Below, piece by piece: positions 25,056 to 56,197 of a DNA stretch of 64,000 nt. The stretch is from an uncultured Thermoleophilia bacterium (lineage in GTDB: Bacteria; Actinomycetota; Thermoleophilia; UBA2241), in assembly GCA_963715985.1 (NCBI GenBank), contig CAVQSP010000011.1:160001-224000 (forward strand), in the 5' to 3' direction. The translations under genes and the position numbers were made by a program. Position 1 is the stretch's first letter. Each line of letters starts with the position of its first letter. The notes under the pieces are model-generated. The model did no database searches. It had not been told where the DNA came from and was given only the letters and a program-made list of their open reading frames with translations.

Positions 25056-26471
25056 TCAGGCGAACCGTAGGCCGACCTTCTCGAGATTCTCCTTCCGGCG
25101 CTCCCAGAGCCGGACGTACTCATCGGTTGGCGCCAGCTCCGGCAACTCGTAGCAGTCCATGAAGCTCATGCCGAGCGGCGCCTGGCCGGCGGCGATGGGC
25201 TTCTCGTAGCGATTGAGAAGCTGCACCACCATGGCGTTGGCCTCTTCGAGGCCTATGCCTGCGGCCGCCTCGCTGATCTCGCGCAGAATCCGCGCCTCCA
25301 TGCCCGTCACGTGGTCGACTGTCTTCATCTTCGCGCCGCAGGCACCGTACAAGGCGGTCACGCCAGCAGCCGTCTGCGCGATGGCCTGAGCCGCAATCTC
25401 GTCGCAGATCATCTCGGTGCACGGCCCGGCCGCAGGGCCCACGTACATGTCCACCAGGACGGGGACGCCGGCGGCCCTCAGGGCGAGGATGCAGGTGGTC
25501 GCGAACCAGAGCGTCTGGCGATCGGTCGTGGTGCCGCTGTAGAGGCTCTGTGGGTACCAGACGAAGTTGGCCGGGTCGCAGACCACGAAACCGGCGATGG
25601 CTTCTGCCACTCCAGTGATCGCCGTGCCCTCGGCGCCACCGCTGTAGCCACCGAAAAGCGGACAGGAGCACGCCTCGACGATGTTCCCGAGGTACTTGTT
25701 GTGCATGACCTTGCTGATCAAGTCATAGTCCATCTTGAGTTCATTGAGGAAGACGACGAGGTGAGGGTCGCTGGGCCGCAGCCCGCCCGGAAAATCGCCG
25801 GCATCCTGCGCCTCACTTGTGACGCCGGACATGATGCCGACGATGCCGAGCCCCGGCTTGCCGGCGTCCTCCGCTGCCTGCCGAGTCCACAGCGCCTCCT
25901 TCTTGCAGGCGAGGATCTCGATGGGCGTGTGCGCCTTGGTGGGCACACCCAGGATGTCCTGCAGAGCGCCAGTGTGGAGACCATCGACCTCCTCCTGCGC
26001 GACGCTCGTCATGATCGGGAGGAAGTACTCCTCACTCTGCGGACAGCCATTCGGCCCCCCCTTGACCAGGGGCCGGCGAGCATCGCCGATATCTCTCGCC
26101 ACGGCCTCGACGGTTTCAGCACCGGCGCCGAAGAGGTGCGTTGAGGGGGCGCGCCTCAACGCGCTCTCGATCTCGTCACGGGTGATCGAGATGGTCGTTT
26201 CCGTGCTGATGTTGTAGAGGCCCACGCTGGCCAGTAGCTCCACGGCCGCCTCAAACACACGCTTGGCCATCTGCAGGTCCTGCAGGACGACCTCATCTGG
26301 GTCGAAGCGGATCTGGTACTCCTCTTTGAGCTCACGGAGTCTCGCCGGAAGGATCCTGCTGTCGAACTCCTTCTCCGGCACGCTCTTCCCGCCTGTTGAC
26401 CTCAGGTAGAAGTCGGCGACGTTGTCAATATGGTCGTACGAGGATTTCTCGACGTCGATAGCCACGTTCAC
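25056..26471 (-). CDS. mtmB: monomethylamine:corrinoid methyltransferase family protein, non-pyrrolysine
   Basis: MtmB-like motifs (GGPNG, GKPGLGIVG, NELKMDY, GGYSGGAEG, AGPCTEM, TGMEAR); Val where MtmB has Pyl. Confidence 0.82.
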   Translation of the reverse strand: MNVAIDVEKSSYDHIDNVADFYLRSTGGKSVPEKEFDSRILPARLRELKEEYQIRFDPDEVVLQDLQMAKRVFEAAVELLASVGLYNISTETTISITRDEIESALRRAPSTHLFGAGAETVEAVARDIGDARRPLVKGGPNGCPQSEEYFLPIMTSVAQEEVDGLHTGALQDILGVPTKAHTPIEILACKKEALWTRQAAEDAGKPGLGIVGIMSGVTSEAQDAGDFPGGLRPSDPHLVVFLNELKMDYDLISKVMHNKYLGNIVEACSCPLFGGYSGGAEGTAITGVAEAIAGFVVCDPANFVWYPQSLYSGTTTDRQTLWFATTCILALRAAGVPVLVDMYVGPAAGPCTEMICDEIAAQAIAQTAAGVTALYGACGAKMKTVDHVTGMEARILREISEAAAGIGLEEANAMVVQLLNRYEKPIAAGQAPLGMSFMDCYELPELAPTDEYVRLWERRKENLEKVGLRFA

Positions 26472-38189: not shown

Positions 38190-38439
38190 CGGCTTGTTCT
38201 GGACGCTGCTCCACTCCGACTCCGCTACTTCAAGGACGACGTCGCCACAGAGGTCATGAGGGGCGGAGGATTGCAGGCCACGAAGCTGGGCAGCGACGAC
38301 GTCTAGGTGAACGCCGACCCGCACGGCGCGCTTCACCCGCACCCCCAAGAAGGGCACCCACCCGTCGCACGTATACGCCACCGACCTGGCCGGCGGCACG
38401 CAAGCCAACGTGGCCAAGGCTAGGCTCACGGTGAAGTGA
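38190..38439 (+). pseudogene. decayed C-terminal fragment of a secreted Ig-like protein
   Basis: ...KKGTHPSHVYATDLAGGTQANVAKARLTVK* with an internal stop and frameshift upstream. Confidence 0.35.
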
Positions 38440-40105
38440 CGCGATTCCCGGCAGCCGACCGCGGCCCGCCGAGCGCGCACCGGCAGACAGGACGGCCGAA
38501 GGGCCGCGGGCGCTCCCCGCGCCCACGCGCAGAAGCAGTGGTCAGACGCTCACGCGGCGCGACTGAAGCACGCCTGCGCTCGTTCGGGAGGCCGTGCATC
38601 CCTCCGGAAGTGCCTTCTCGGAGGACGTACCTGACCCACGTAGCGGGGACGCCGGAGGAGCCGGTGTCACACTCGGGCAGTTCGGCCGTCGCGGCGGCCA
38701 GGAGATCGGCAACTCGGTCCAGGACATCCGGATCCACCGCAAGGGGCCGGTGTTCGGCCAGCAGCTCGACCACGGCGCGTTTGGCCGATTCGCCTTCGCT
38801 GGGCGCCCCCTTCTGGACATCCATGTAAGAGGTACGCCGCAGGAGGTCCGGTCGCCAGTGAGCGCCGGCTCTGATGCCGGTTCGCGTCTCCTTCAGGGCC
38901 AGATAGTGCCCGCCGGGGCCGACCCGGGAGACGGAATCGACTGAGACGCCGGCGTCGTCGACCGCGAACCCTCCGCCGACGTACTCGATGTAGCTCACGA
39001 TCTCGGCGTCGAGCAGCATCTTCGGCAGCGACACGGCCTGGCCGCCCTCGAGCGTGCCCAGGCCGGTCATGATGTCCGGCCTCCCCAGCCGTGTGAACAA
39101 GCCGAGGGCCATGTCTTCCATCCCGCCGCGGAAGCTCAATTCGCTCGCATCCGTCACGTATCCGACGCTCAGCGCGGGCATGCCGTACGAATGCGCCAGC
39201 TCGGTCTGCGCGACGTTCATCAGGAGGCTCTCCGGTGTGGAGACGGCGATGCGGGAGGTCCTCATGTCCATGATGCTCGCGTTGGCGGAGTAGATCAGAG
39301 GGCAGCCCGGAGCCACGAGCTGCAACAGTACGACCGCACTCAGCACGTCGCAGTTGGTCTGCATGATCGTCCCGGCCAGCGAGACGGGCCCGGTCGCGCC
39401 GGCGAGCGCCAGGCTGAAGATGTCGATGGGCACGTGCTCCTTGGCGAGTGCCATCGCCGCCTCGAGCGCGGGGCCGTCGTGCTGCAGCGGCGCCACAGGG
39501 CAGTAGATGGCTGAGAAGATCGGGCGCGATCTGCTCCGTCCGGCGCCCTCGAACTGCCTCACGATGTCGAGGGCGTACGGCACTTCTTCCGGGCGCGTGA
39601 CCTGGCCCATGACGTGCTTCCCGGTGTTCTGGAGCATGCAGGCTGTCGCGGCCAGGTCGGAGAGCCCCGAAGGGACGCCGTCCGTCGGACTGATCGAGTA
39701 CCACACGATGCCGAAGGCCTCGAGGGCATCCGCGAGCCGCGTCACCATGGCAAGGTCGTCGAGCCGGGGTGCCCGATATGCACCCGAGTCCAGGTCGACC
39801 ACGAAGGGACAGATGCCGGCGACGGTCGCGAACGTGCGCATGCCGTCCAGCAGCGCGTCTCGCTGCGGGTCGCGGCCGGCGAGCAGCACGTCCCGCGGCA
39901 CCCCGGACAGGGCCCACTCCACGAGTGGCCGGGGAATGCGCACGAGGCCGGTCTCGTGATCCACCGCACAGCCGGCATCCTGCAGCACCGACCTCGCCGC
40001 GGCACTCTGAAACCGTACTCCGACGCTCTCGAGAACGTGAAGCGAGCGATCGTGGATGAAGTCACGGTCGGCGATGTCGAGGATCGAGATGCGCGGAGAT
40101 GGCAT
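38426..40105 (-). CDS. trimethylamine methyltransferase (MttB) superfamily protein, non-pyrrolysine
   Basis: LESVGV, GATGPVSLAG, PGCPLIY, MDMRT, TPE, YGMP, VGPGGHYL; Val at the Pyl position; true 3' end probably nearer 38670. Confidence 0.9.
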   Translation of the reverse strand: MPSPRISILDIADRDFIHDRSLHVLESVGVRFQSAAARSVLQDAGCAVDHETGLVRIPRPLVEWALSGVPRDVLLAGRDPQRDALLDGMRTFATVAGICPFVVDLDSGAYRAPRLDDLAMVTRLADALEAFGIVWYSISPTDGVPSGLSDLAATACMLQNTGKHVMGQVTRPEEVPYALDIVRQFEGAGRSRSRPIFSAIYCPVAPLQHDGPALEAAMALAKEHVPIDIFSLALAGATGPVSLAGTIMQTNCDVLSAVVLLQLVAPGCPLIYSANASIMDMRTSRIAVSTPESLLMNVAQTELAHSYGMPALSVGYVTDASELSFRGGMEDMALGLFTRLGRPDIMTGLGTLEGGQAVSLPKMLLDAEIVSYIEYVGGGFAVDDAGVSVDSVSRVGPGGHYLALKETRTGIRAGAHWRPDLLRRTSYMDVQKGAPSEGESAKRAVVELLAEHRPLAVDPDVLDRVADLLAAATAELPECDTGSSGVPATWVRYVLREGTSGGMHGLPNERRRASVAPRERLTTASARGRGERPRPFGRPVCRCALGGPRSAAGNRVTSP

Positions 40106-40139
40106 GCGAGTCTCCCTGGAAGATTCGAACGGGCGCGTG

Positions 40140-41984
40140 TCAGCCCGCGGGTATCCCGGCCGCACGCTCGGCGGGCGCCACGTCGGCCAGCGCTGTGAGC
40201 TTGGGCACATCCTCGAGCAGCCGGATCGTGTACTCGTCGACGGGGCGCGACAGGACCGTGTCGGTGGGACCACGCTCCACCACGCGCCCCTCATGCAGGA
40301 CGACCACCTCCTGAGCGATGCTGCGGACCAGCGCCAGGTTGTGCGTGATGAACAGGATGCTGAGACCGCGCTCCGTCTGCAGCCTGCGCAGCAGCTCGAC
40401 GATGGCCGCCTGTACGGAGACGTCGAGGGCCGAGGTGACCTCGTCGCAGACGAGCAGTGACGGTTCGATCACGAGCGCCCTCGCGATGGCCACACGCTGT
40501 CGTTCGCCGCCGCTCAGCTGGTCGGGGTATCTGCCGAGGAAGTCCCCGCTGAGTGCCGCCGCCTCCAGCGTCGCGACCACGCGGTCCGTACGCTCGGCGG
40601 CCGAGAGCTTGAAGAAGCGGGTCAGGGGCTGCTCGACCAGCTGCCCCACCGTCTTGCGCGGGTTCAGCGACGTGTAGGGGTTCTGGAAGATGTACTGCAC
40701 GGAACGCAGCACCTCGAGGTCGCGGTCCTTGGCCAGCGGTCCCAGGGCCTGGCCCTGGAACAGGACTCGGCCCGTCCAATTGCCGTGCAGGCCGATGAGG
40801 CAACGCGCCAGCGTCGTCTTTCCCGAACCGGACTCCCCGACCACGGCCACGCACGAGGTGCGGGGGACGTCGAGCGCGACATCGAACAGGATCTGGACCT
40901 CGTTGTAGCTGGCGTCGAGGCCGGTGACCTCGAGCAGGGCCGGCCCGCCTGCGACGCCGGCAGACGACTGACGCTCGGAGGCCAGCTTCTCGACCCCGGT
41001 CGAGATCCGCACCAGCTCCCGGGTGCGGATGCAGCGTGCCCGGTGCTCGGCGCCGTTGACCGGGAGCATGGCCGGGGGAGCCGCTGAACACTCCGGGATC
41101 GCGTGCGGGCAGCGGGGCTCGAAAGAGCAACCGCGCGGGCGCCTCCCGGGGCTCGGCGGCTGGCCCTCCATGCCCTCCAGCACGTGGCAGATCTCCGGTG
41201 AGGGGATGGCCCTCAGGAGCCCGTCCGTGTACGGGTGGCCGGGTGAGTCGAACACGTCCTTGGTCGTGCCGAGCTCGATGAGGCGGCCCGCGTACATCAC
41301 GGCCACGCGATCGGCGATCTCAGCGATCACGGCGAGATCGTGGGTCACGTAGAGCGCGGCGACGCCGTAGGTGCTGCAGAGGCCGCGCACGGTGTCCAGC
41401 ACGTGGCGTTGAGTGGCGACATCCAGGCCGGTGGTCGGCTCGTCCAGAACGATGAGCTCGGGCCGGCACGAGAAGGCCATCGCCAGTGCGATGCGCTGTT
41501 GCTGGCCACCCGACAGCTGATGCGGATACCGGTTCAGGATCTCGGGGCCCGCCGAGAGATCGACCTCGCCCAGTACCTGCGCCATGCGCTCCGTCGGGTC
41601 CGGCAGGTCGGGGTCATCGCCTGCGTGCACCGTCAGGGCTTCGCGCAGCTGGCGCCCGACCTTGAGCGAAGGGTTGAGGGCGCTGGCCGGGTCCTGCGGC
41701 ACGTAGGCGACGCGCCGGCCGCGCAGCCGCCGGAGCTCCTCCTCGCCCATGCTCAGCACGTCCCGCCCTTCCAGAACGACGGTGCCGGCGGCGACGGAGA
41801 GGCCTCGCCGGCAGTGCCCCAGCAGCGCCAGCGCGACCGTCGTCTTGCCCGAGCCCGACTCACCGACCAGGCCGACGACCTCCCCGGCGTCCACGGTCAG
41901 GTCGATATCGTCGACGACGTCGACGGCCGAGCCGGCCAGGACGACGCGCAGGCCGTCGATGACGATGCGAGGCCGGTCGGCCAT
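40140..41984 (-). CDS. Opp/Dpp-type ABC ATP-binding protein (fused OppD-OppF)
   Basis: Two GESGSGKTT and two LSGG motifs; GCSFEPRC. Confidence 0.93.
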   Translation of the reverse strand: MADRPRIVIDGLRVVLAGSAVDVVDDIDLTVDAGEVVGLVGESGSGKTTVALALLGHCRRGLSVAAGTVVLEGRDVLSMGEEELRRLRGRRVAYVPQDPASALNPSLKVGRQLREALTVHAGDDPDLPDPTERMAQVLGEVDLSAGPEILNRYPHQLSGGQQQRIALAMAFSCRPELIVLDEPTTGLDVATQRHVLDTVRGLCSTYGVAALYVTHDLAVIAEIADRVAVMYAGRLIELGTTKDVFDSPGHPYTDGLLRAIPSPEICHVLEGMEGQPPSPGRRPRGCSFEPRCPHAIPECSAAPPAMLPVNGAEHRARCIRTRELVRISTGVEKLASERQSSAGVAGGPALLEVTGLDASYNEVQILFDVALDVPRTSCVAVVGESGSGKTTLARCLIGLHGNWTGRVLFQGQALGPLAKDRDLEVLRSVQYIFQNPYTSLNPRKTVGQLVEQPLTRFFKLSAAERTDRVVATLEAAALSGDFLGRYPDQLSGGERQRVAIARALVIEPSLLVCDEVTSALDVSVQAAIVELLRRLQTERGLSILFITHNLALVRSIAQEVVVLHEGRVVERGPTDTVLSRPVDEYTIRLLEDVPKLTALADVAPAERAAGIPAG

Positions 41985-43998: not shown

Positions 43999-45591
43999 TC
44001 AGCTCAGCCAGTAGTTCTTGAAGTCGAAGTTGTTCCAGGCGGCGCCGATCTTGCTCTCCTGGGTGCCCATGATGTTCGGCGAGGAGGCGTCGATGACCGG
44101 CGGGAAGAACGGGATCATCAGGCCGCCTTCATTGTGGTCGATCAGCTGCATCTCGTGGCAGATGTCGGCGCGTTTGGCCTCGTCGGGCGTGGCCAGGGCC
44201 TCTTTGTACAGTTTCTGCGTGCGCGGGTCGTCCCAGTGCGTCTCCCAGTACGGAGACGTGGGCAGCAGCTCCGACTGCACCTGGGGCAGGTAGTACTGGA
44301 AGCCCCAGTAGTCGAAGGCGAACGGGTACTTGAGGTACTCGGGCCCGAAGAAGTCGGTGACCGTCGTCTTGCGGACGTTCACGGTGACGCCGGCGGCCTT
44401 GGCCTGCTCCGCGAACACCTGCGCGGAGGACACCACGCCCATGGCGATGTCGGCGGTCACGAGCTCCACCGTGAGACCTTCCTGACCAGCCTGCTTGAGG
44501 AGTGACTTGGCCTGCTCGATGTCCTGCTCGCGCTGCGGGATGGACGTGTCGTAGGCCGGGTCCCAGCGCGAGAAGACGTCGTTGCCGAGCGTGCCGTTGC
44601 CCTTGAACACCAGGTCCAGCATCTGCGGGCGATCGATGATCAGACGCATGGCCTGCCGCACGCGCACATCGTCGAACGGCTTGACCTGCGTGTTCATGGT
44701 GAACGGGTTCATGCCGCCGCCGGGGGAGATCACCAGCTTCTTGCCCTGACTCTGGAGGGACGCGATCTCGTTGGATGTGATGAGGCTGATGGTGTCGACC
44801 TGACCGCCCAGCAGGGCGTTCACCTGTGCCGTGATGTCCGCGTACTCGATGAGCACGACCTTGTCGACGTACGGCAGCGGCTGGTTCCAGTAGTTCTCGT
44901 AGCGCTCGAAGATCGTCTGCTGCGGCGAGAAGCTCGTGATCTTGAAGGGTCCGGTGCCGTTGGGCTTGTCCGGGTTGTAGTCAACCGGCACGATGGGCAG
45001 GAACCAGGTGGGCTGCACCTGGACGAAGATGCTGTTGGGCTGCAGCATCGGCACCGTGAGCGTGAGGTCGTCGACCTTCTTCATCGCGGGCAGGTCGACC
45101 ACCGAGAGGAACCCGGAGCCGTTCTTGCCCTCCTTGGCGATGTAGTTGTAGGTGTACATCACGTCGTCCACGGTGAACGGTTTGCCGTCTTGCCAGGTGA
45201 TGTCCGGCTTCAGCTTGATCGTCCACTCGCTGCCGTCGGCGTTGGGGATCATGTCCTCGGCGAGCAGGAACTCCATGGTGCCGTCGGGCTTGATCTCCAC
45301 CAGCGCCTCGTAGCACATCACGGTGCGGGCGGCGTCGGAGTTGGTGACCTCCATCGTGACGTCGAGCGTGTTCGAGTTGGAGCCGCCGGTGATGCCGGCG
45401 TTGATCGTGCCTCCCCGGGTGGGCGAGGCAGCTGCGGACGGCGAGGCCGAGCTGGTCGTCTCGCCCTCTCCGCCACAGGCGGCCAGCGACCCCCCGAGGC
45501 CCAGGGCGGCACCCGCGACGGCGGCTCCCTTGAGAACGTCGCGTCGCGTGAACTCGCGCTGCAAGATCGACTTGTCCGTATGTTCAGCCAT
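43999..45591 (-). CDS. Opp/Dpp (family 5) substrate-binding lipoprotein with Tat signal
   Basis: TRRDVLKG, LAAC, GTGPF, PFDDVRVRQA. Confidence 0.92.
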   Translation of the reverse strand: MAEHTDKSILQREFTRRDVLKGAAVAGAALGLGGSLAACGGEGETTSSASPSAAASPTRGGTINAGITGGSNSNTLDVTMEVTNSDAARTVMCYEALVEIKPDGTMEFLLAEDMIPNADGSEWTIKLKPDITWQDGKPFTVDDVMYTYNYIAKEGKNGSGFLSVVDLPAMKKVDDLTLTVPMLQPNSIFVQVQPTWFLPIVPVDYNPDKPNGTGPFKITSFSPQQTIFERYENYWNQPLPYVDKVVLIEYADITAQVNALLGGQVDTISLITSNEIASLQSQGKKLVISPGGGMNPFTMNTQVKPFDDVRVRQAMRLIIDRPQMLDLVFKGNGTLGNDVFSRWDPAYDTSIPQREQDIEQAKSLLKQAGQEGLTVELVTADIAMGVVSSAQVFAEQAKAAGVTVNVRKTTVTDFFGPEYLKYPFAFDYWGFQYYLPQVQSELLPTSPYWETHWDDPRTQKLYKEALATPDEAKRADICHEMQLIDHNEGGLMIPFFPPVIDASSPNIMGTQESKIGAAWNNFDFKNYWLS

Positions 45592-45608
45592 CTTCTCGTC
45601 CCCCTCTG

Positions 45609-46361
45609 TCAGTCCATGAAGGCGCCGCCGTTGATGTTCAGCGCCTCTCCGGTCACGAATACTGCGTCAGGCCCCAACAGGAACGCGATGGTGCGCGCCA
45701 CGTCGTCGCCGCTCTCGACGCGACCGAGCGGCGTGTTGTCGATGAACGTCTGTCTGACCTGCACTGGCGTCATTCCGCGCAGTTCGCCCTCCCAGACGAG
45801 CTCCCGCTCCTGCATGGCCGTCGCGACCCATCCGGGGCACACGCTGTTGACGCGGATCCCGTGGGGGCCCAGCTCATAGGCCATCGCCTGGGTGAGACCC
45901 ACCACCGCGAACTTGGAGGCGATGTAGTGGGAGAGATACGGGACGTTGCCCTGCTTGGCGGCCATGGAGGCGACGTTGACGATGGCCCCGGGACGGCCTG
46001 CCGCGACCAGGTGGCGGGCGAACTCCTGCCCGCAGTAGAAGACGCCCGTCTCGTTCACCGCCAGCATGCGGTTCCACTCTTCGTCGGGCATGTCCAGGAA
46101 GGAGATCATGGAGGACACACCGGCGTTGGACACCCAGCCGTCGAGCGGTGAGAGCGACGCCTCGGCGGCCTTGATGGCCTGCCTGACGGCTGCACGGCTG
46201 GTGACGTCGAGCTGCAGCGCGAGGCCACCGATCTCGCCGGCAACGCGGGCCGCCGCGCGCTCGTCGAGGTCGGTGACGGCGACCTCGATGCCGCGTTGCG
46301 CCAGCAGGCGGGCGGTCGCCTCGCCGATGCCGCTGCCGGCGCCGGTGACGAGAACACTCAT
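45609..46361 (-). CDS. short-chain dehydrogenase/reductase
   Basis: TGAGSGIG, NAG, YIASK, VCPG. Confidence 0.93.
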   Translation of the reverse strand: MSVLVTGAGSGIGEATARLLAQRGIEVAVTDLDERAAARVAGEIGGLALQLDVTSRAAVRQAIKAAEASLSPLDGWVSNAGVSSMISFLDMPDEEWNRMLAVNETGVFYCGQEFARHLVAAGRPGAIVNVASMAAKQGNVPYLSHYIASKFAVVGLTQAMAYELGPHGIRVNSVCPGWVATAMQERELVWEGELRGMTPVQVRQTFIDNTPLGRVESGDDVARTIAFLLGPDAVFVTGEALNINGGAFMD

Positions 46362-47812
46362 CCCAGGACCCCCTTGAGCGTCGGGTAGAGCTCCCGATAC
46401 GCCCGGTAGCTTTCGTCGTACACGTCGTAATGCTGCGGCTCGATCACCTCGTCCACGGTGACGAACCGGTCGATGTCACGCCAGTCCGGGAACACGCCCA
46501 CGCCCCTGCCGGCGCAGAACGCCGCGGCGAAGGCCGACCCGCTGCGCAACGTGACCTTCTCCAGCGGCAGACCGAGCACGTCGGCGGTGATCTGCGTCCA
46601 CACGCGCGAGCGCGATCCACCGTCGGTGACACGCGCGCGCAGCGGGCGGTGCCCGCGTTCCGCGAAGACCTCGAGGTGGTGGCGGAAGCCGAAGGCGATG
46701 CCCTCGAGCACCGCACGGAACAGGTGACCGCGCGTGTGCGTGAGCCGCAGGCCGACGAGGGCGCCGGTGGCCTCCGGGTCGTTGATGGGCGTCTTCTCGC
46801 CGAGGAAGTACGGGAGGCAGAGGACCCCCCCGAGCCGGGCGGTACCAGCTCGGCCTCGGCGTCGAGCTGCGCGAGGCCGGCGCCTGCGGCGCACTCGCGC
46901 TGGAACCACTTGATCAGGCTGCCGCTGGTGGCCATGCAGCCGCTGAGCACGAAGCGCCCCGGCAGCAGGTGGAAGTCGAGGTACAGGCGTTCGTCGACGA
47001 ACGGGTCGTCGACGGCGAGCATGATGTCTCCGGCGCCGCCGAGCTTGACGAGCAGGTCGCCGTCCTCGAGCACGCCGGAGGCGAAGGTGGACCCGATATG
47101 GTCGGCCGTGCCGGCGACCACCGGCACGCCCGTCTTGAGCCCGGTCTCGGCGGCGGCGGCGGCAGTCACGGCGCCGACGACCTCGTCGCAGCGGCGCACC
47201 GGCGGGAGCAGCTCCCGTGCGCCCGCCGCAGGCCTCGAGCACGTCGTCGGCCCAGCGCATGGCGGCGAAGTCCAGGAGGCCCGTCTCCAGGGCCCAGTTG
47301 GCCTCGACCGAGCGTTCGCCGGAGAGCCGCATCGCGATGTAGTCGTAGGACCCCATGAGCGTGCGAGTCTTGCTCCACACCTCGGGCTCGTGCTCCGCGA
47401 GCCACAGCAGACGCGGTCCGGTGGACTGCTGCGTGATGGCCGACCCGGTACGCTCCAGGACGTCGGCGCCGGCGAGACGCCGGCGCAGCTCCTCCACCTC
47501 GGCCACGGAGCGCGCGTCGTTCTGCTGGATCGACCAGCGCAGCGGCACGCCGTGCTCGTCGAGCGGGATCGTGCACGGCACCATGCCGGTGACCCCGACC
47601 CCGGCCACCTCTCCGTCGAAGCCGTCCAGGAGCTCCCGTGTGGTGGCGCAGACGTTGGCCCACCACTCGCCGGTGTCCTCCTCGGCCCAGCCGGCATGCA
47701 GCGAGTGCAGCGAGCTGGGCCGCTCGGCCTCGGCGACCACGCCGCGCTCGGGGTCGAGGAGCAGCGCCTTGGTGCCGGTCGTGCCGACGTCGATGCCGAG
47801 CAGCACGCTCAC
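46358..47812 (-). CDS. FGGY-family carbohydrate kinase (two frameshifts)
   Basis: GIDVGTTGTK, QNDAR, GTADH, LPYFLGEKTP, LEGIAF, GGSRS across three frames. Confidence 0.88.
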   Translation of the reverse strand: MSVLLGIDVGTTGTKALLLDPERGVVAEAERPSSLHSLHAGWAEEDTGEWWANVCATTRELLDGFDGEVAGVGVTGMVPCTIPLDEHGVPLRWSIQQNDARSVAEVEELRRRLAGADVLERTGSAITQQSTGPRLLWLAEHEPEVWSKTRTLMGSYDYIAMRLSGERSVEANWALETGLLDFAAMRWADDVLEACGGRTGAAPAGAPLRRGRRRRDCRRRRRDRAQDGRAGGRRHGRPYRVHLRLRRARGRRPARQARRRRRHHARRRRPVRRRTPVPRLPPAAGALRAQRLHGHQRQPDQVVPARVRRRRRPRAARRRGRAGTARLGGVLCLPYFLGEKTPINDPEATGALVGLRLTHTRGHLFRAVLEGIAFGFRHHLEVFAERGHRPLRARVTDGGSRSRVWTQITADVLGLPLEKVTLRSGSAFAAAFCAGRGVGVFPDWRDIDRFVTVDEVIEPQHYDVYDESYRAYRELYPTLKGVLG

Positions 47813-48630
47813 GCGGCGCCCGCGTAGGTAGTGCCGCGGCCGGCCGCGGCCGTGAAGGCAGCGACGCGGTCGGCCGCGACCTCGTTCCACGTATAGCCGT
47901 CTCGTTTGAGAGCGGACCCGACGATGATGCCGTCCGCAGTCCCGAGGAAGGAGGCTACGTTCGCCGTGTTGGCGCCCGTGTTCGCAAAGACGGGCGCCGC
48001 ACCCGCCAATGTCTCCCTGACCTCGGCCAGGGCCACCATGTCCGGTTCTGTGGCCTGCCGCGGCCCCGAGATGAGAATGGCGTCGGCCAGACTGGACCAC
48101 ACCGCCGAGCGCGCCACCTCGGTGACGCTGCGCGTGCCCAGCGAGCTGGCGAACTCCGGCGTGACGTTCATGAAGGTCGCCACGTGACCCGCGTCGATGC
48201 GGCGGCGCTCGCGGAGCAAGCCGGCGACATCGGTGCTCCAGAGGCCCATGTCCGACTCGTAGGCCCCGACCGGCACGCAGCGGATGAACGACCCCCCTGT
48301 CGCCGCGGCGATGTTGAGGGCTGCCTGCGGGTCCCATAAGAAGTCCACCCCGAAGGGCCGGTCCTTGGGTGCCAGTTCGGCGACGACGCGAGTCATGGCG
48401 GCCACACCCTCGTAGCCGGCCTTGAACGAGTACGGGAGATCGCCTTCATTACAGAAGAGGACCGCGTCGAAGTCGGCCGCCAGGATGATCTCCATGTCCG
48501 CCCGCAGGTCTTCGACGATGCGCGCCAGACCCCCGTTCGCGTCGTACATGGGTGTGCCGGGCAGCGCCCTCAAGTGCGCCATGGCTATCAGGGGCTTCCT
48601 GTCACCGAACAGATCACTGACTCGTCCCAT
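47809..48630 (-). CDS. BtpA/SgcQ-family TIM-barrel protein
   Basis: MAHLRALPGTP, CNEGDLPY, NTGA, IVGSALK. Confidence 0.88.
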   Translation of the reverse strand: MGRVSDLFGDRKPLIAMAHLRALPGTPMYDANGGLARIVEDLRADMEIILAADFDAVLFCNEGDLPYSFKAGYEGVAAMTRVVAELAPKDRPFGVDFLWDPQAALNIAAATGGSFIRCVPVGAYESDMGLWSTDVAGLLRERRRIDAGHVATFMNVTPEFASSLGTRSVTEVARSAVWSSLADAILISGPRQATEPDMVALAEVRETLAGAAPVFANTGANTANVASFLGTADGIIVGSALKRDGYTWNEVAADRVAAFTAAAGRGTTYAGAA

Positions 48631-49391
48631 CAGGCGATCACCACCTCCACGTGCTCTGCCTCAAGCGCGGCCAGGACCTCCGGAGCCGCGCCTCCGTCTG
48701 TCACAAGGACGTCGACCCTCTCGAGAGGGCATATCTGAGCGAATGTCACCTTGCCGAGCTTGGCGCTGTCGGCGACGACGATGCAGCGGCGCACGCAGGC
48801 CAGTGCGGCGCGCTTGACCCGGGCGTCCTCGAGGCTGTACTCGGTGCATCCCGACTCCACATCCACGCCGCCGATGCCCATCACGAACGTGTCGAAGCGC
48901 AGGCGGGAGAAGGCCTCCTCGGCCATGTCGCCGACCAGCGAACCCTCCCCGGCGGTGATCTGGCCGCCCGTGAGCAGCAGGCGGATGCCCCGGTGCCGTG
49001 CCAGGAGGTTGGCGATGTGTATGCTGGGAGTGAGTACCGTGAGGTTGCGACGGTCATGCAGGGCCCGCGCCACCTGGAGCGTCGTGGTGCCGACATCCAG
49101 GATCACCGTCTCACGCTCGCCGAGCATGGCAGCGGCAGCCCTTCCGATGTCGGCCTTGGCGTCGGTGCTCTGCTTGGCACGCACCGAGTAGGGAGCCGCG
49201 TACCCGCGCATGGCCAGGTCGATGGCACCACCGTGTACGCGGCGCAGCACGCCCTCGAGCTCGAGCGCCTCGAGGTCGCGGCGGATGGTCATCTGCGAGA
49301 CCTCGGTGCGGTCGCTGAGATCGGCGACTGCCACCTCTCCCCGCTCCTGGAGCAGGTCGACGATGATCTCGCGACGCGTCTGCACATCCAT
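48630..49391 (-). CDS. DeoR/GlpR-family transcriptional regulator
   Basis: VSQMTIRRDL, RVHGGA, LDVGTT, ADSAK. Confidence 0.93.
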   Translation of the reverse strand: MDVQTRREIIVDLLQERGEVAVADLSDRTEVSQMTIRRDLEALELEGVLRRVHGGAIDLAMRGYAAPYSVRAKQSTDAKADIGRAAAAMLGERETVILDVGTTTLQVARALHDRRNLTVLTPSIHIANLLARHRGIRLLLTGGQITAGEGSLVGDMAEEAFSRLRFDTFVMGIGGVDVESGCTEYSLEDARVKRAALACVRRCIVVADSAKLGKVTFAQICPLERVDVLVTDGGAAPEVLAALEAEHVEVVIA

Positions 49392-49530: not shown

Positions 49531-50190
49531 GTGGGTGAGCGGTTTGAGAGCCTGACGGCGGCGGTGCGCGACGGCGACCGGGACGTGGTCGCCCACGACG
49601 TGGGGCAGGCGCTGGAGGCAGGCGAACCGCCGCGGACCGTGCTCACCGAGGGTCTCGTCCCCGGCTTGCGGCAGATGGGCGACCTGTTCAAGGATGGGCA
49701 CGCGTACCTGCCCGAGATCCTCATCAGCGTGCGCGCCATGAACACCGGTCTCGAGATCCTGCGGCCGTATCTCGCCGGCGACGAGCCGCGCGGCAAGGGC
49801 GTCGTGGTGCTCGGGACGGTCGAGGGCGACCTGCACGACATCGGCAAGCGTCTGGTGGGCATGCTGCTGAGCGGCAACGGCTTCGAGGTCGTGGATCTGG
49901 GCGTAGATGCGAGCGCCGAGAGCTTCGCCGCCGCCGCCGAAGAGTACGGCGCCGACATCGTCGCCCTCTCGGCGCTCTTGACCACCACCACGCCCGAGTT
50001 CGGCCGCGTGCTGGAGGCGCTCGCGGCCCGCGGCCTGCGCGAGCGCGTGCTCGTCATGGTCGGCGGCGCGCCCGTGTCGCGCGCCCTGGCCGAGGAGATC
50101 GGCGCCGACGGCTTCGCCGACGACTGCATCCTCGCCGTCGACGAGGCGGAACGGCTCTTGGCGGCGCGCCACGAAGGCGGCGCGCCGTGA
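49531..50190 (+). CDS. corrinoid (B12-binding) methyltransferase protein
   Basis: YLPE, GTVEGDLHDIGK, DLGVD, SALLTTT, VGGAP. Confidence 0.93.
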   Translation: MGERFESLTAAVRDGDRDVVAHDVGQALEAGEPPRTVLTEGLVPGLRQMGDLFKDGHAYLPEILISVRAMNTGLEILRPYLAGDEPRGKGVVVLGTVEGDLHDIGKRLVGMLLSGNGFEVVDLGVDASAESFAAAAEEYGADIVALSALLTTTTPEFGRVLEALAARGLRERVLVMVGGAPVSRALAEEIGADGFADDCILAVDEAERLLAARHEGGAP

Positions 50191-51410
50191 CCGCCTTCAC
50201 CCGCCGGCGCTTCCACGAGATCTGCCGCGGCGAGCGCCTCGGCGACTTCGGCATCCTCGGCAACGGCATCCACATCTTCTGGCCGGAGACGGTGCAGGCC
50301 TGGGTCGCCCAGGGTGCGCCGGAGAGCTTCGCCCACGTCGACGAGCTCGAGTACGGCACGCCCAGCCCGGTCGACGAGTACTTCGGCTTCGACCCCTCCC
50401 GCTCCCTCGCCGAGGTCCACAGCGGCATGGACGCCGGCACGTCCATGCACGAATACGTGCCGGGGGTGGTGGCTCACAACCACGCCTTCCTGCTCAACCC
50501 GCCGTTCGAGCCGCAGGTGCTCGAGCAGGACGACAAGAGCATCGTGGTCCGCAACGGCAGCGGCATCACCGAACGGCTGCTCAAGGGCAGGCCTTTCAAC
50601 ATGCCGATGTGGCTCGACCACCCCGTCAAGGACCGGAGCACGTGGGAGCGCCTCCGCAGCCGCCTCGACCCTGACACCCCGGCTCGTTACCCGTCCGACT
50701 GGGAGGCCTATGCGGCGCAGATCAATGCGCTGGACTGCCCGGTCTCCATGGAGGTCGGCGGCTTCTTCGGCTACCTCAACATGTGGGTGGGCACAGAGGA
50801 CCTCATGTACCTCTTCTACGACGACCCGACGCTGGTCGAAGACATGATGGAGACCGTCCTGGAGCTCGAGCTGGCCATGGTGAAGCGCGTGACCCGGGAC
50901 ATCCGCCTCGACTGGGTGTGGTATTGGGAGGACATGGCCTACAAGAGCGGGCCCATGATCGGCCCGGACATGGTGCGCCGCTTCATGCTGCCGCGCTACG
51001 AAAGGCTCAACGAAGTGATCCGCGGGTCCGGCTGCGAGGTCCTCTACCTGGACTGCGACGGCAACGTCGATGAGCTCTTGCCGGTTTGGCTCGACGCAGG
51101 CATCAACCTGTTCTGGCCCCTGGAGGTGGCGGCCGGCACGGACCCGCTGGCCCTGCGCCGGAAGTACGGCAAGCACATCATCTTGGCAGGGGGTCTGGAC
51201 AAGCGCGAGCTGATGCGCGACGAGGAGTCACTGCGCCGCGAGGTCATGAGCAAGGTGCCGGAGCTGGCGAGGACGGGCCCCTACTTCCCCAGCCCCGACC
51301 ACCTCGTGCCCATCGACATGCCCTTCGAGAACTTCTGCACCTACATCGAGCTGCTGCGCGAGATCCGCGGGGACGAACCCCTGGGTCTCCCGCGCGCCTC
51401 GCGGACGTAG
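50187..51410 (+). CDS. uroporphyrinogen decarboxylase-family (MtaA/CmuA-like) methyltransferase
   Basis: WEDMAYKSGPMI, DCDGN, PLEVAAG, GGLDKR, PDH; translationally coupled to the corrinoid gene. Confidence 0.82.
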   Translation: MTAFTRRRFHEICRGERLGDFGILGNGIHIFWPETVQAWVAQGAPESFAHVDELEYGTPSPVDEYFGFDPSRSLAEVHSGMDAGTSMHEYVPGVVAHNHAFLLNPPFEPQVLEQDDKSIVVRNGSGITERLLKGRPFNMPMWLDHPVKDRSTWERLRSRLDPDTPARYPSDWEAYAAQINALDCPVSMEVGGFFGYLNMWVGTEDLMYLFYDDPTLVEDMMETVLELELAMVKRVTRDIRLDWVWYWEDMAYKSGPMIGPDMVRRFMLPRYERLNEVIRGSGCEVLYLDCDGNVDELLPVWLDAGINLFWPLEVAAGTDPLALRRKYGKHIILAGGLDKRELMRDEESLRREVMSKVPELARTGPYFPSPDHLVPIDMPFENFCTYIELLREIRGDEPLGLPRASRT

Positions 51411-51448
51411 ACCGACGGAACCGGACCCCGAGAGCAGGGAGGACGAGA

Positions 51449-52243
51449 GTGAGACGCTTCGAGGACAGGACGGTCATCGTCACCGGCGCCGCCCAGGGCA
51501 TGGGACAGGAGTTCTGCTGGCGGTTCGCGGAGGAGGGCGCCTACGTGGTGGGCGTCGATGTGAACGGCGATGGCCTCGGCGAGACGCGGGCCAAGGGGCC
51601 CGCCGGCCGCATCGAGGCGCTGGTCATGGACGTCAGCGACCCGGCGGCGGTACAGGCAGGCGTCGGCGGCGTGGCGGAGCGGCGCGGCCGCATCCACGTG
51701 CTTGTCAATGCGGCCGCCATCGCGCCCATGGTCGGCGTCCTCGACATCACGCCCGAACAGTGGCAGCGGGTCATCGACATCAATCTCAACGGCTACTTCT
51801 ACATGGCCCAGGCCGCCGCCCGGAACATGGTGGACCACGGCGGCGGCGCCATCGTCAACATCTCGTCCTGCAACTCGTTCATCGTCGAATCGCCCTATGC
51901 CGACTACAACGCCGCCAAGGGGGGCGTGAACCTGCTCACCCAGAGCATGGCGTTCGAGCTGGCCCACCTCGGCGTGCGCTGCGTGGCGGTGGCCCCGGGC
52001 ATGACGATGACCCCGATGATGGACTTCACGAACGACCAGCAGACCTATCGCGGCTACATGGAGAAGATCCCGATGCGGCGTCCGGCGCTGCCGCGCGACC
52101 AGGCCAACGTGGTCCTGTTCCTGGCGTCCGACGAGGCCGCCTACGTCACCGGGATCACGATCCGCGTGGACGGCGGCATCATGCAGGGCTTCTGGGCCGA
52201 CCCGCGGATGGCTCCGCCGGCCCTGCCCGGGGACGAGAGCTGA
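51449..52243 (+). CDS. short-chain dehydrogenase/reductase
   Basis: TGAAQGMG, YNAAK, VAPG; GGAGG RBS and GTG start. Confidence 0.92.
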   Translation: MRRFEDRTVIVTGAAQGMGQEFCWRFAEEGAYVVGVDVNGDGLGETRAKGPAGRIEALVMDVSDPAAVQAGVGGVAERRGRIHVLVNAAAIAPMVGVLDITPEQWQRVIDINLNGYFYMAQAAARNMVDHGGGAIVNISSCNSFIVESPYADYNAAKGGVNLLTQSMAFELAHLGVRCVAVAPGMTMTPMMDFTNDQQTYRGYMEKIPMRRPALPRDQANVVLFLASDEAAYVTGITIRVDGGIMQGFWADPRMAPPALPGDES

Positions 52244-52247
52244 GGGC

Positions 52248-53505
52248 GTGACCGGCGAGCGCACCAGCTGCGGGACCGCAGCCGGCACGTACGACCCCGG
52301 TCTCATGTCGGGCTTCCCGCCGCCGCCGGACCGCCGCGTGGCCGCCGACCAGGTGTACGCCGACCCGCGACACACGCAGTGGTTCATGCAGCACGCGCGC
52401 GAGGTCGTGGGCACGGCCGACGTCTCGGCGCGGCACGAGCCGGTCGCGGAGCTCGGCGCGGCGCCGGCGGACCTCGACGACGTCGCGCTCGTCGACGTCG
52501 GTGACGAGAGCGCCGGCGCCTCCCCCGGCACCTGGTCGTTCGCCGAGATGCTGGCCGCCGGCGAGACGGACGGCGTCCTTGTCTTGCGCGACGGAAAGGT
52601 CCTCTGCGAGCGCTACTTCGGCAGCCTGCGCCCCGAGACGCCGCACCTCTGGCACTCGATCACCAAGTCGCTCGGCTCCTGCGTGGTCGCGCACCTCGCC
52701 GACCGGGGGCTGCTGGGACCGGAGAGCGCCGTCGTCGACTTCGTCCCGGAGCTCGCCCACAGCGCCTACGCGCACGCGACCGTGCGCCACCTTCTCGACA
52801 TGACCGTCGGCATCCGCTACGTGGAGGATCACGAGGACCCCGACTCAGAGGACTCGCGGCTCGACCGCCTCTGCGGCCTCAAGCCGCGCCGCGCCGCCGA
52901 TGAGCCCGGCTCCATCTACGATGACGCCGTCGCCACGGTCCCGGTGGGCGAGCACGGCCGCGTGATGAAGTACGTGTCGCTCAACACCGACGTGCTCGGC
53001 TGGGTCATGGAGCGCGCGACCGGCACGGCCGTGCCGGAGCTTCTGCGCCGCGAGGTGTGGAGCAAGCTGGGCACCGAGCACGACGCATACATCCTGCTCG
53101 ACGGCGCCGGCAGCGCCCTGCTCGACGGCGGCTTCTGCGGCAGCCTGCGCGATCTGGCGCGCTTCGGCCAGATGCTGGCGCAGGACGGTCTCTGGAACGG
53201 GGTGCGGGTCGTGCCGGCCTCGTGGCTCGACGACCTGCGGCGAAACGGCGACAAGGCGGCGTTCGCCGCGTCCGACGACCCCGGCATGCTGCCCGGCGGT
53301 TCGTATCGCAGTTGCTTCTGGGTCGCGGAGCCGGCCGGCCGCGTGGTGCTGCTCGGCATCGGCATGTACGGGCAGATGCTCTACGTCGACCGCGACGCCA
53401 GGCGTGGTCGTCGCCAAGCTCTCAAGCCAGCCACGCGCCGGCCTCGCCGGGCCGATCACCCGTACGTTCTACGCCCTGGAGTCACTGGCCAGGGCGATCA
53501 CTTGA
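52248..53505 (+). CDS. serine hydrolase, beta-lactamase-like (NylB-type; frameshift ~53400)
   Basis: MSGFPPP, SITKS (SxxK), LLDMT, Y.SLNTD.LGW, GMYGQ. Confidence 0.82.
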
Positions 53506-53578
53506 CGATGACGACGTCGTGGGCGGCCGCGCCGAAGGCGACGGCCGCCCGGCAGAGACGAAGGAGGCAGATGCCGCG

Positions 53579-55043
53579 ATGAAACGAGGCGACTACGCCG
53601 GCCTGCCGCGCAGGGAGGGCATCGCCGCCCCCCCGCTGAGCGACGGCGACCTGCACGACATCCACATCGCCACGCTGGAGGTGCTCGAGCGCACCGGCGT
53701 CATGGTCGAAGCTCAGGACGCTCGCGACATCTTCAGGGACGGCGGCTGCGTCGTCGACGAGGAGACCCACCTCGTGCGCATCCCGCCGAGCGTGGTGGAA
53801 GACGCGATCCGCTCCACGCCACCGCTGATCAGGTGGTGCGGCCGCGACCCCAGGCACGACCTGATGCTGGGCGGCGGCCGCCTGGCCTTCATGAACTTCG
53901 GCGAGGCGCCCAAGGTCAACGACCTCGAGACCGGCGAGAACCGGCCGGCTCGCATCAGCGATGTGGCGGACATCTGCACCGTCGTCGACTGGGCCGGCGA
54001 CATCGACGTCTACGAGGCCGCCATCACCCCGCGCGACTGCCCCGAGGACCTCGCCACCGTGCACCACCTGGCGGCGGCGCTCCCCCACGTCAGCAAGCCG
54101 ATGATGTTCGGGCCGCTCAGCACGTTCGAGTCGCAGACGTGCCTCGATCTGGCCGTTGCCGTCGCCGGCAGCCACGACGCGCTGCGCGAGCGGCCGTTCC
54201 TGGGGCTCGGCATGTGCTCGCTGAGCCCGCTGCAACTCACCGCGCAGGGCACCGACGTCTGCCTGTTCGCGGCGCGCAACGGCCTGCCGCTCAGCATCCT
54301 GGCCATGTGCATGGCGGGCGGCACCACGCCGCAGACCCTCGCGGGGACGCTCGTCGTGCACAACGCCGAGGTGCTCGCAGGCATCGTCATGGTCCAGCTC
54401 GCCGAGCGCGGCGCCCCGGTCATCTACTCGTCCTCGAGCACGGCGATGGACCTGCGCCTGGGCACGGCCTCGGTCGGGACGCCGGAGACGGCCCTGCTCA
54501 ACGCCTGCGTCGGGCAGATCTCACGTCAGTACGAGATCCCCTCGTGGGTGGCCGGGTTGTAGGCGGACTCCAAGGTGAGCGACGCGCAGACGGCCTACGA
54601 GAAGACCCTCACCGGACTTGCGCCAGCGCTGGCAGGGGCCAGCCTGATCTACGGTGCGGGGATGCTCGAATCGGGCATGACGTGCGATCTCGGCCAGATG
54701 GTCATGGACAACGAGAACATCGGTCTCATCCGCCAGCTCGTGCGAGGCGTGGCGGTGACCCCCGAGACCCTGGCGGTCGACCTCATCCACGAGGTGGGCC
54801 CCGGCGGCGAGTTCATCTCGTCCGACCACACCATGCGGCACATGCGAGAAGCGAGCATGCCGAGAGCTGTGGGACCGCGACGTGCGCGCCGCGTGGGAGG
54901 AGTCGGGCGCGACCGACCTGCCGGCGCGCGCCCGCGACGAAGCCCGGCGCGTGGTGGCGGAGCACAGGCCCGAACCGCTTCCCGACGACGTTCTCGCTGA
55001 GCTCGACAGGATCGTGCAGGCCGCCGACGCCACCGTGGGCTGA
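53579..55043 (+). CDS. mttB: trimethylamine:corrinoid methyltransferase with in-frame amber codon (predicted pyrrolysine); frameshift ~54865
   Basis: MAGGTTP.TLAGTLVVHNAEVL, GTPE, YEIPSWVAGL-TAG(54560-54562)-ADSKVSDAQTAYEKT, IYGAGMLESG, VGPGGEF. Confidence 0.9.
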
Positions 55044-55099
55044 GGCGCCCGCAGCCTGTCGGCGGACAGACCCCCCAACCCACGATGAGGAGACAGACG

Positions 55100-56197
55100 A
55101 TGGACGAGATCGGCGTCGGCCTGGTGGGAGCCGGGCTCATCAGCGACCAGCATGCATTGGCGTTCCGCCGGGTGAAGGGCGCGCGCGTGCTGGCGGTGGC
55201 CGATCCGGACACGGCCCGGGCGCGCAGACTCGCAGACACGTACGGGCTGGACGCGGCCTACGACGACTTCCGCCGCCTGCTCGAGCGCCCCGACATCGAC
55301 ATGATCTGCATCGGCGCGCCCAACTACGTCCACCGCGAGATCGGCGTGGCCGCGGCGCAGGCCGGCAAGCACATCGTCTGTGAGAAGCCGCTGGCGCGCA
55401 CCATGGCGGAGGGCGACGAGATGCTGGCCGCCGCCGAACTCGCCGGCATCAAGCTCATGTACGCCGAGCTCATCTGCTTCGCGCCCCGCTACGTGCGCGC
55501 CAAGGAGCTGATGGACGAGGGCGCGTTCGGCCGTGTCTTCCAGATCAAGCACGGCGAGACCCACTACGGCCCGCACTCCGACTGGTTCTGGGACGGCGAC
55601 CTCTCCGGCGGCGGCGTGATGATGGACATGGGCTGCCACAGCGTCGAGATCATCCGCTGGCTCTACGACAAGCCCCCCATCGAGTCGGTCACGGCGGAGC
55701 TCGGCACGTTCGTGCACGGCGAGCGCACCGACGTGGAGGACCACGCCTTGGTGACGATCCGCTTCGCGGGCGACCGCCTCGGCGTGATCGAGGGAAGCTG
55801 GGCGAAACCCGGCGGCATGGACGACCGTCTGGACATCCAGGGCAGCCAGGGCACCTGCCACGGCGACATGATGCAGCAGTCGTCGCTGTTCGCCTACAGC
55901 GACGTGGGCTACGGCTACTCCGTGGAGAAGGGCACGAGCCTCGGCTACAGCTACGCCATCGCCGAGGAGTACTACAACTACGGCATGCCGCAGGAGATGC
56001 AGCACTTCACCGACTGCGTCCTCAAGGACAGCGCGCCCTTGGAGACGGGCCTCGACGGGCGCGTCTCCCTCGAGGTCATCTACGCCGCCTACCGCTCGGC
56101 CGCCACCGGCACGAGGGTGCGCTTCCCGCTGGAGCTCTCGGCCGAGGAGGCATCGGAAGCTCCGTATCTGCAGTGGAAGCGCCGGCGGGAACAATAG
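55100..56197 (+). CDS. Gfo/Idh/MocA-family oxidoreductase
   Basis: GLVGAG, CEKPLA, GGGVMMDMGCH. Confidence 0.92.
   Translation: MDEIGVGLVGAGLISDQHALAFRRVKGARVLAVADPDTARARRLADTYGLDAAYDDFRRLLERPDIDMICIGAPNYVHREIGVAAAQAGKHIVCEKPLARTMAEGDEMLAAAELAGIKLMYAELICFAPRYVRAKELMDEGAFGRVFQIKHGETHYGPHSDWFWDGDLSGGGVMMDMGCHSVEIIRWLYDKPPIESVTAELGTFVHGERTDVEDHALVTIRFAGDRLGVIEGSWAKPGGMDDRLDIQGSQGTCHGDMMQQSSLFAYSDVGYGYSVEKGTSLGYSYAIAEEYYNYGMPQEMQHFTDCVLKDSAPLETGLDGRVSLEVIYAAYRSAATGTRVRFPLELSAEEASEAPYLQWKRRREQ

Follow-up and report, generated by a model that had tools for sequence, protein, structure and literature searches.

A probable pyrrolysine-dependent, MttB-type methylamine methyltransferase gene with an in-frame UAG in an uncultured Thermoleophilia bacterium

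The stretch of DNA analyzed here, referred to as the window, comprises 64,000 nucleotides of a genome from an uncultured, high-GC bacterium of the class Thermoleophilia (G000:C11:160001-224000, G000 being the genome under study and C11 the contig). It contains an mttB gene (53579-55043, plus strand; positions are those of the window unless a contig is named) in which a TAG codon occupies the site where methylamine methyltransferases carry pyrrolysine (Pyl). The gene is best read, with a probability of roughly 0.88, as encoding a Pyl-dependent methylamine:corrinoid methyltransferase of the MttB (trimethylamine) type in an organism that decodes UAG as Pyl. This reading rests on the family assignment and active-site alignment of the product, on the conservation of the TAG and of the sequence beyond it, and on the presence of Pyl machinery elsewhere in the same genome.

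The start codon of mttB (ATG, 53579) overlaps the TGA of the upstream gene (ATGA), with a GGAGG sequence 11 nt upstream, and is common to four orthologs, all of which begin with MKRG. The TAG at 54560-54562 is codon 328 in frame with this ATG when TAG is translated as a residue, and the frame past it reads ADSKVSDAQTAYEKTL...IYGAGMLESG. An earlier, sequence-only reading of the window had recognized an in-frame TAG at the canonical Pyl position of MttB and a frame that continues directly beyond it; both observations hold, and the translation that it quoted is reproduced exactly. It had also proposed checking the codon in sequencing data, and here the TAG is kept. Independent sequence was taken from Logan contigs of three wetland runs (X1, X2 and X3), that is, from contigs and not raw reads, and the TAG site is covered in two of them. 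The codon is intact in X2 record 14 (54347-54652), which differs from the window at four positions (54445, 54481, 54490 and 54556), and in X3 records 20 and 22, which show no differences; X1 covers neither the TAG nor the frameshift site described below. The X2 and X3 contigs possibly derive from one sampling campaign, so the support they lend is limited, though independent of the G000 assembly.

The product is a member of the Pyl-type MttB family. Residues 1-427 alone, without the C-terminus, score 538.8 bits against TIGR02369, the NCBIfam trimeth_pyl equivalog (cut-off 525), and 283.9 bits against Pfam MTTB (PF06253). Among PDB chains searched with phmmer, the best matches are those of Methanosarcina barkeri MttB (7xcm, 303.2 bits; 7xcl, 300.6 bits; residues 6-418). 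Residue 328 lies opposite X (Pyl334) of 7xcl, with PSWVAGL-O-ADSKVSDAQTAYEKT in the window gene and PSYVAGS-X-SDAKVPDDQAGHEKT in the archaeal enzyme. Counted along the same alignment, Gly110, Met249 and Tyr364 of M. barkeri MttB correspond to G108, M243 and Y358. According to the accessible text of PMC9842639, Gly110 and Tyr364 are 100% conserved in Pyl-containing MttBs, and the Y364F substitution abolishes activity.

The M. barkeri enzyme (7XCL/7XCM/7XCN; PMC9842639) is thereby the closest described counterpart among these structures, sharing with the window gene its family, the UAG at the Pyl334 equivalent, the three residues named above, and the pairing with a B12-binding corrinoid protein and a URO-D family MT2. 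The two systems differ in that the host here is a bacterium, the synthetase is split (PylSn and PylSc), the operon adds a serine hydrolase, a short-chain dehydrogenase/reductase (SDR) and a GFO-type oxidoreductase, and the methyl acceptor is presumably tetrahydrofolate rather than coenzyme M. The non-Pyl quaternary-amine methyltransferase MtgB (PDB 2QNE/9YCE) likewise shares the fold and the superfamily (201 bits). However, in non-Pyl members of the MttB superfamily the Pyl column holds a sense codon and the HEKT-type motif is missing, whereas the gene here has a TAG. An assignment as an MtgB-like, non-Pyl member is ruled out by that TAG and by the score against the Pyl equivalog.

Conservation of the TAG extends across the order. 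Among the 150 homologs listed in a search of 89 genomes of the order (205 further matches exist), every one carries an in-frame TAG, 148 with a single TAG and two with two. Four are true orthologs of the window gene (in G068, G102, G104 and G082; 77-87% identity, three genera), and in all five sequences the TAG stands at the same column; in the four orthologs the frame runs on. Pairwise dN/dS among the five (Nei-Gojobori; dS 0.28-0.98) is 0.13-0.30 before the TAG and 0.18-0.39 after it. The values after the TAG resemble those before it, which indicates that the downstream part is under purifying selection at the protein level.

The machinery for Pyl is encoded on contig C13 (Table 1). The sequence-only reading had correctly found no pylTSBCD genes in the window, and its proposal that the organism decodes UAG as Pyl is supported by the genome, which contains tRNA-Pyl(CUA), PylSn, PylSc, PylC, PylD and a PylB split between two frames. 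The tRNA folds into a cloverleaf in which a single base separates the acceptor stem from the D stem; the D loop has 5 nt and the variable region 2 nt, the anticodon stem is extended, the discriminator is G (G73), and the CCA is encoded. The 5-nt D loop, the long anticodon stem, the short variable region and the G discriminator are hallmarks of tRNA-Pyl. An Rfam search around pylT gave no match at E <= 0.01. The pylBCD-pylT-pylSn / pylSc layout recurs in relatives; of 33 loci retrieved, many of them incomplete, 17 have an identified tRNA-Pyl. A B12-binding radical-SAM gene and a corrinoid-protein gene lie between pylSn and the divergent pylSc (L013 12243-14042, equal to G000:C13:557242-559041), an arrangement shared by most related loci with enough flank. 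The genome also encodes two RACo/RamA-type corrinoid activases (333.8 and 257.9 bits). In addition, ARAGORN reports a tRNA-Sec(TCA) at G000:C13:139538-139635, which may mean that this organism uses the 21st amino acid as well as the 22nd; among the MTTB and Dimeth_Pyl match pieces, several contain one TGA.

Genes of the Pyl type are numerous in this genome, with 23 TAG-bearing mttB, mtbB and mtmB loci in total. There are 89 MTTB match pieces, of which 45 (the 44 best and one fragment) were aligned. In ten of these the Pyl column holds TAG, always together with the motif P[ST].[VIG]AG.O.D.K..D.AQ..[HY]EKT; the remaining 35 show sense residues (T, S, A, G, C, L and others) at that column. The mtbB family is represented by 11 loci with one in-frame TAG each, three of them also split by frame breaks, and mtmB by two genes with one TAG each, next to five further MtmB-family loci without a TAG. 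One of these five lies in the window (25059-26471, minus strand; PF05369, 378.5 bits). To our knowledge, no function has been described for non-Pyl MtmB homologs. The window also contains one of the approximately 35 non-Pyl MttB-superfamily paralog pieces (38429-40294, minus strand; 269.6 bits), with Thr in the Pyl column. A further MttB paralog (G000:C3:63073-64479, plus strand) follows immediately after a TAG-bearing mttB and shares 56-59% identity with Pyl-type paralogs. It keeps the full Pyl-type motif (..AQSGHEKTLT) with Leu (CTC) replacing the TAG, and its sequence suggests a member of the Pyl clade in which Leu has naturally taken the place of Pyl.

What had been called genetic-code expansion is, in this organism, a site-specific recoding of UAG and not a changed code. 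Release factor 1 (RF1) is present (prfA, 479.7 bits; cut-off 423) and TAG ends 444 of 2212 high-GC3 open reading frames (ORFs), a share of 20-21%, which together point to recoding at particular sites. With the next in-frame stop at a median of 60 codons after TAG and 59 after TGA, these observations rule out genome-wide reassignment of UAG. An archaeal code in which all TAGs are read as Pyl has been described (Kivenson et al. 2025, as cited in the accessible text of PMC13695967); its marks are loss of RF1 and of TAG as a stop, and the genome here has kept both.

A screen of the genome for other Pyl sites found a coding-like continuation after 79 of 605 TAGs and 111 of 2224 TGAs; the known methyltransferase loci account for 20 of the 79. 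Among the 59 other candidate TAGs there are no conserved Pyl sites outside methyltransferases, in a screen that needs at least 80 high-GC3 codons after the TAG and a Pfam hit and can miss sites. A Pfam domain spans the TAG in two of the 59, an AcnX and a Pyr_redox_2 gene, whose listed orthologs have no TAG. Both TAGs (AcnX, G000:C3:97798; Pyr_redox_2, G000:C20:286148) occur in G000 only. A stop is found in 0 of 18 other AcnX matches, and most orthologs of the Pyr_redox_2 gene have one TGA or TAA in their sequence. These two TAGs are nonsense mutations or assembly errors, not Pyl sites. Since non-conserved TAGs occur in this assembly, it is conservation that marks a Pyl site.

The mttB gene is interrupted twice, first by the amber codon and then by a frameshift. 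Near 54866, CCGAGA[G]CTGTGG holds one base too many, so that the final 59 codons (LWDRDV...ATVG*) fall in the next frame, and the first frame, after ...HMREASMPR, degenerates into an Arg/Gly/Pro-rich reading; apart from the UAG, the frame is thus not continuous in this assembly. The sequence-only reading had set the break at codon 328, as an amber codon at the catalytic residue, apart from the indels elsewhere in the window. The amber codon stands, but it is not the sole interruption, the one-base frameshift having been overlooked, and with the extra base the gene end that was given (55043) is not in frame with 53579. The frameshift is probably an assembly error, because it is missing from one related wetland contig and from the four orthologs. 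X2 record 15, the sole contig covering the site, shows 20 differences over 576 bases and omits one base at 54866, and in each ortholog ...HMREASQP[RKH]L[WF].RDV... is part of a single frame that reaches the stop.

Several points weigh against a functional Pyl-dependent MttB. This copy is frameshifted and pylB is split too, each PylB piece (303.8 and 125.8 bits) falling below the 348-bit cut-off; taken at face value, the gene copy and the pathway are both broken. Furthermore, rpoB is unbroken, in one 1260-aa frame, so frame breaks are not assembly-wide. The TAG-stop share of 20-21% shows no clear depletion relative to the 23-28% in G060, a genome of the same genus without PylS (it is 31-37% in G030, a class relative with 76% GC; the comparison samples are small, n = 126-220), and, with RF1 present, read-through at normal TAG stops would have to be avoided in some way. 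The genome is a 4.35-Mb metagenome-assembled genome (MAG) of 22 contigs and 69-71% GC, with 88.8% completeness and 7.29% contamination, and its pyl genes are on another contig than the window. In this subfamily, Thr111 of M. barkeri MttB is replaced by Glu and His346 by Tyr, at residues 109 and 340 of the product studied here, so trimethylamine is not certain as the substrate. Finally, both the translation of the gene and the Pyl residue itself are deduced from sequence.

The explanation that best survives beside the favored one is that the lineage's gene is a real Pyl-mttB while the G000 copy is a true pseudogene, deprived of its C-terminal 59 residues by the insertion. This is unlikely, yet it deserves to be taken seriously. 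The frameshift is present in the assembled sequence, in a GAGAG context that is not a homopolymer; rpoB is intact; and this copy could be dispensable beside the nine other mttB pieces with a TAG. Nevertheless, the only independent contig across the site lacks the extra base, all four orthologs are in frame, and the sequence after the shift is still a conserved MttB C-terminus without further damage. Broken frames are also seen at the pyl locus. Besides G000, three few-contig assemblies of the genus have a split pylB, whereas 41 of the 53 other genomes of the genus have it whole, and several further genes at that locus have only partial-length matches to their families.

The remaining explanations are far less probable. 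UAG could simply terminate, giving a 327-residue N-terminal fragment, perhaps accompanied by a C-terminal piece with a start of its own, and no Pyl insertion. TAG is indeed a frequent stop in this genome and RF1 is present, but a protein cut at that point would lack the Pyl site, Tyr358 and the remainder of the TIM barrel, purifying selection is as strong after the TAG as before it, the TAG is invariant over an upstream-part dS of 0.45-0.98, and the pyl machinery is complete, with pylB in two frames. It is similarly improbable that the pyl genes and the window come from different organisms binned together, the window's organism having no machinery. The contamination estimate and the separate contigs leave room for this, as do some loci that occur twice, on different contigs (G000:C3:7432-8833 and C9:168510-169911; C20:285803 and C22:31771, the latter pair approximately 93% identical); these near-duplicates fit the 7.29% contamination or strain mixing in the bin. 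However, C11 (698 kb, GC 0.696) and C13 (676 kb, GC 0.706) are both large and similar in composition, both carry TAG-bearing mttB and mtbB, and related species genomes mostly have both PylS (81 of 88) and Pyl-type MttB homologs (83 of 88). Read-through by a near-cognate or other suppressor tRNA inserting a canonical residue would agree with a split pylB and a Pyl insertion that is deduced rather than observed, but it has very little probability, given that the tRNA-Pyl of the pyl cluster is the sole CUA-anticodon tRNA found in the genome, that PylSn, PylSc, PylC and PylD are intact, and that a TAG kept at the catalytic position in all 150 of the homologs listed would otherwise have no apparent reason.

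The Pyl trait is a feature of the order to which the organism belongs. The sequence-only reading had considered the genome probably actinobacterial, in agreement with the titles of the closest PylSc-bearing contigs, which are those of Thermoleophilia MAGs. A PylSc search returned 33 loci at 68-79% identity, of which 29 are titled Thermoleophilia, two 'Actinomycetes', one 'Actinomycetota' and one 'Deltaproteobacteria'. The last (L063, 'Deltaproteobacteria bacterium') has a PylSc that is 77% identical, inside the Thermoleophilia range, and is probably a submitter's mislabel or a mis-binned contig. In the order, which consists of one family (f1), PylS occurs in 81 of 88 other species genomes and in 11 of 11 genera. 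In a sample of the class, it is present in 73 of 79 genomes of f1, in nine of 61 of a second family (f4) and in none of 260 from ten other families, and in an even sample of the phylum it appears in one of 400 genomes, again a member of f4. Two genomes of the same genus as G000, G060 and G061 (98% complete, 1.7-1.8 Mb, 1-2 contigs), have neither PylS nor Pyl-type MttB, and in G060 PylB is without a match as well, a pattern that suggests that streamlined members have lost the entire trait. The runs that contain most of the window are labeled wetland metagenome.

In the window, mttB belongs to an operon whose genes all lie on the plus strand with ends that overlap or nearly abut (Table 1). Both partners expected of a corrinoid-dependent methyltransferase, the cognate corrinoid protein and MT2, are encoded in this strand-contiguous set. 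The order SDR-hydrolase-mttB-GFO is kept beside the orthologs in L092, L093 and L095, and L094 shows URO-D-SDR-mttB at a contig end. In L092, L093 and L095, the hydrolase lies directly upstream of mttB (60-78% identity) and the GFO oxidoreductase downstream (81-87% identical). The C-terminal end of the SDR is kept in L092, L093, L094 and L095, and an 84%-identical URO-D piece lies upstream of the ortholog in L094. The SDR ORF is listed from 51086; its domain begins at residue 129, which probably places the true start near 51450. Divergent from the operon, on the minus strand (43999-49391), are genes for a DeoR regulator, BtpA, an SDR, a kinase of the FGGY family and an SBP_bac_5 binding protein of an ABC transporter with a twin-arginine translocation (TAT) signal, a set of sugar- or polyol-like catabolic genes that may be linked with the operon dehydrogenases.

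Table 1. Positions of mttB, its operon and the pyl genes (window coordinates unless contig C13 is named)
Feature	Position	Strand	Basis
Corrinoid protein (MttC-like methyl acceptor), first operon gene	49531-50190	+	Pfam B12-binding_2 64.3 bits, B12-binding 90.5 bits; stop overlaps next start
URO-D family protein, probably MT2 (MtbA/MtqA-like)	50187-51410	+	Pfam URO-D 39.5 bits, profile positions 97-345
SDR	51086-52243	+	Pfam adh_short_C2 199.4 bits
Beta-lactamase-fold serine hydrolase	52248-53582	+	Pfam Beta-lactamase 108.2 bits; stop overlaps mttB start (ATGA)
mttB codons 1-327, upstream of Pyl codon	53579-54559	+	PF06253 283.9 bits; TIGR02369 538.8 bits, cut-off 525
In-frame TAG, codon 328, read as Pyl	54560-54562	+	Opposite Pyl334 of 7xcl; TAG in each of the 5 orthologs; intact in contigs from X2 and X3
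mttB codons 329 to ~429, start frame, holding Tyr358 (Tyr364 equivalent)	54563-54865	+	Alignment; dN/dS 0.18-0.39 after TAG
Extra base, frameshift relative to relatives	54866-54866	+	Insertion placed at 54866 by the aligner, inside CCGAGAGCTG; left out in X2 record 15 and four orthologs
mttB C-terminal 58 codons and TGA, next frame in this assembly	54867-55043	+	Translation LWDRDVRAAWEE...ATVG*; PF06253 profile positions 443-493, 22.1 bits
GFO/IDH/MocA-family NAD(P) oxidoreductase, downstream of mttB	55085-56197	+	Pfam PF01408, PF22725, PF02894
pylB, two frames	C13:551949-552972		PylB matches 303.8 and 125.8 bits
pylC	C13:553014-554180		317.9 bits, over cut-off
pylD	C13:554252-555034		199 bits, over cut-off
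tRNA-Pyl(CUA), directly after pylD	C13:555126-555198		ARAGORN
pylSn	C13:556301-556558		TIGR03912 124.6 bits, cut-off 51
pylSc	C13:559328-560053	other strand	TIGR02367 316.5 bits, cut-off 178

These components suggest the following route. PylB, PylC and PylD would make pyrrolysine from lysine, and the UAG at codon 328 would be decoded by tRNA-Pyl(CUA) charged by the organism's own split PylSn/PylSc. Such insertion would be a local recoding event in competition with RF1, UAG being an ordinary stop in about one fifth of genes. The pyrroline ring of Pyl328 would bind a tertiary amine, trimethylamine or another, and activate one methyl group, assisted by the equivalents of Gly110 and Tyr364. The methyl group would then pass to the Co(I) corrinoid protein encoded four genes upstream, and the URO-D family MT2 would hand it on, probably to tetrahydrofolate, while RamA/RACo-type activases encoded elsewhere in the genome would keep the corrinoid reduced, provided that the operon is expressed.

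Orthologs of this subfamily (at least 77% identity) occur in only four of the 88 other genomes, and the next homologs, among the matches listed, reach at most 56%. This rarity, the His346 to Tyr and Thr111 to Glu replacements, and an operon conserved across three genera raise the idea that the window gene defines a distinct, rare Pyl-MttB subfamily whose substrate is a larger tertiary amine and not free trimethylamine. Such a specialization is speculative and rather improbable; under it, the amine may be released or further processed by the co-encoded hydrolase and dehydrogenases. If the substrate were not a methylamine, this would be the first pyrrolysine enzyme acting on anything other than mono-, di- or trimethylamine.

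Pyrrolysine is the rarest natural extension of the genetic code, known mostly from methanogens, a few Firmicutes and Deltaproteobacteria. The systems of Firmicutes and Deltaproteobacteria (Desulfitobacterium hafniense, Acetohalobium arabaticum) have a split PylSn/PylSc, a pylBCD cassette with pylT, and UAG as a stop elsewhere. As in those bacteria, Pyl use in the genome here is seemingly confined to methylamine methyltransferases. The differences are the phylum, the gene order (pylB-C-D-T-Sn, with the divergent pylSc behind the B12-radical-SAM and corrinoid genes) and the many paralogs, with 23 TAG-bearing loci. The Olavius delta-1 symbiont is a further bacterial Pyl system (accessible text of PMC1976440).

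The novelty implied by the sequence-only reading was overstated, as Pyl in Actinobacteriota already appears in the accessible parts of two papers (PMC9630628, PMC10805028). Guo et al. 2022 (PMC9630628) report PylRS genes in 'two Actinobacteria', and supplementary files 2 and 3 of that paper, as far as accessible, contain the PylSc of 'Thermoleophilia_bacterium' and 'Actinobacteria_bacterium_ADurb.BinA094' with no PylSn entry. They include a PylRS catalytic subunit from the same class that shares motifs with the PylSc of G000 in a by-eye comparison, whereas G000 has PylSn as well as pylBCD and pylT. In the accessible text of Ellenbogen et al. 2023 (PMC10805028), some Actinobacteriota MAGs from a permafrost mire undergoing thaw are stated to express mttB and mtbB that encode Pyl, recognized by their truncation at the amber codon; pylS has no occurrence in the main text. 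Those MAGs resemble the organism here in phylum, in habitat type (peat or wetland) and in gene types, and the accessible text mentions neither an order-wide distribution nor this operon. Beyond these two papers, a literature search for pyrrolysine or mttB in Thermoleophilia or Actinobacteriota, with most subscription journals outside its scope, gave incidental co-occurrences only (PMC13503563 and PMC10654671 were checked in their accessible parts). The trait is therefore already published for the phylum and is not new in kind; the order-wide distribution, the paralog count and the unusual operon are modest additions.

For annotation, the gene illustrates how such loci are routinely split at the TAG and, as here, further broken by assembly frame errors. 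For the biology of recoding, an organism in which UAG is a common stop alongside RF1 offers a natural case of how bacteria restrict Pyl to the right sites. For the ecology of the group, the 23 TAG-bearing loci and approximately 35 non-Pyl MttB paralogs suggest that these bacteria, without being methanogens, probably consume methylamines and quaternary amines in wetlands, where they would compete with methylotrophic methanogens for methane precursors.

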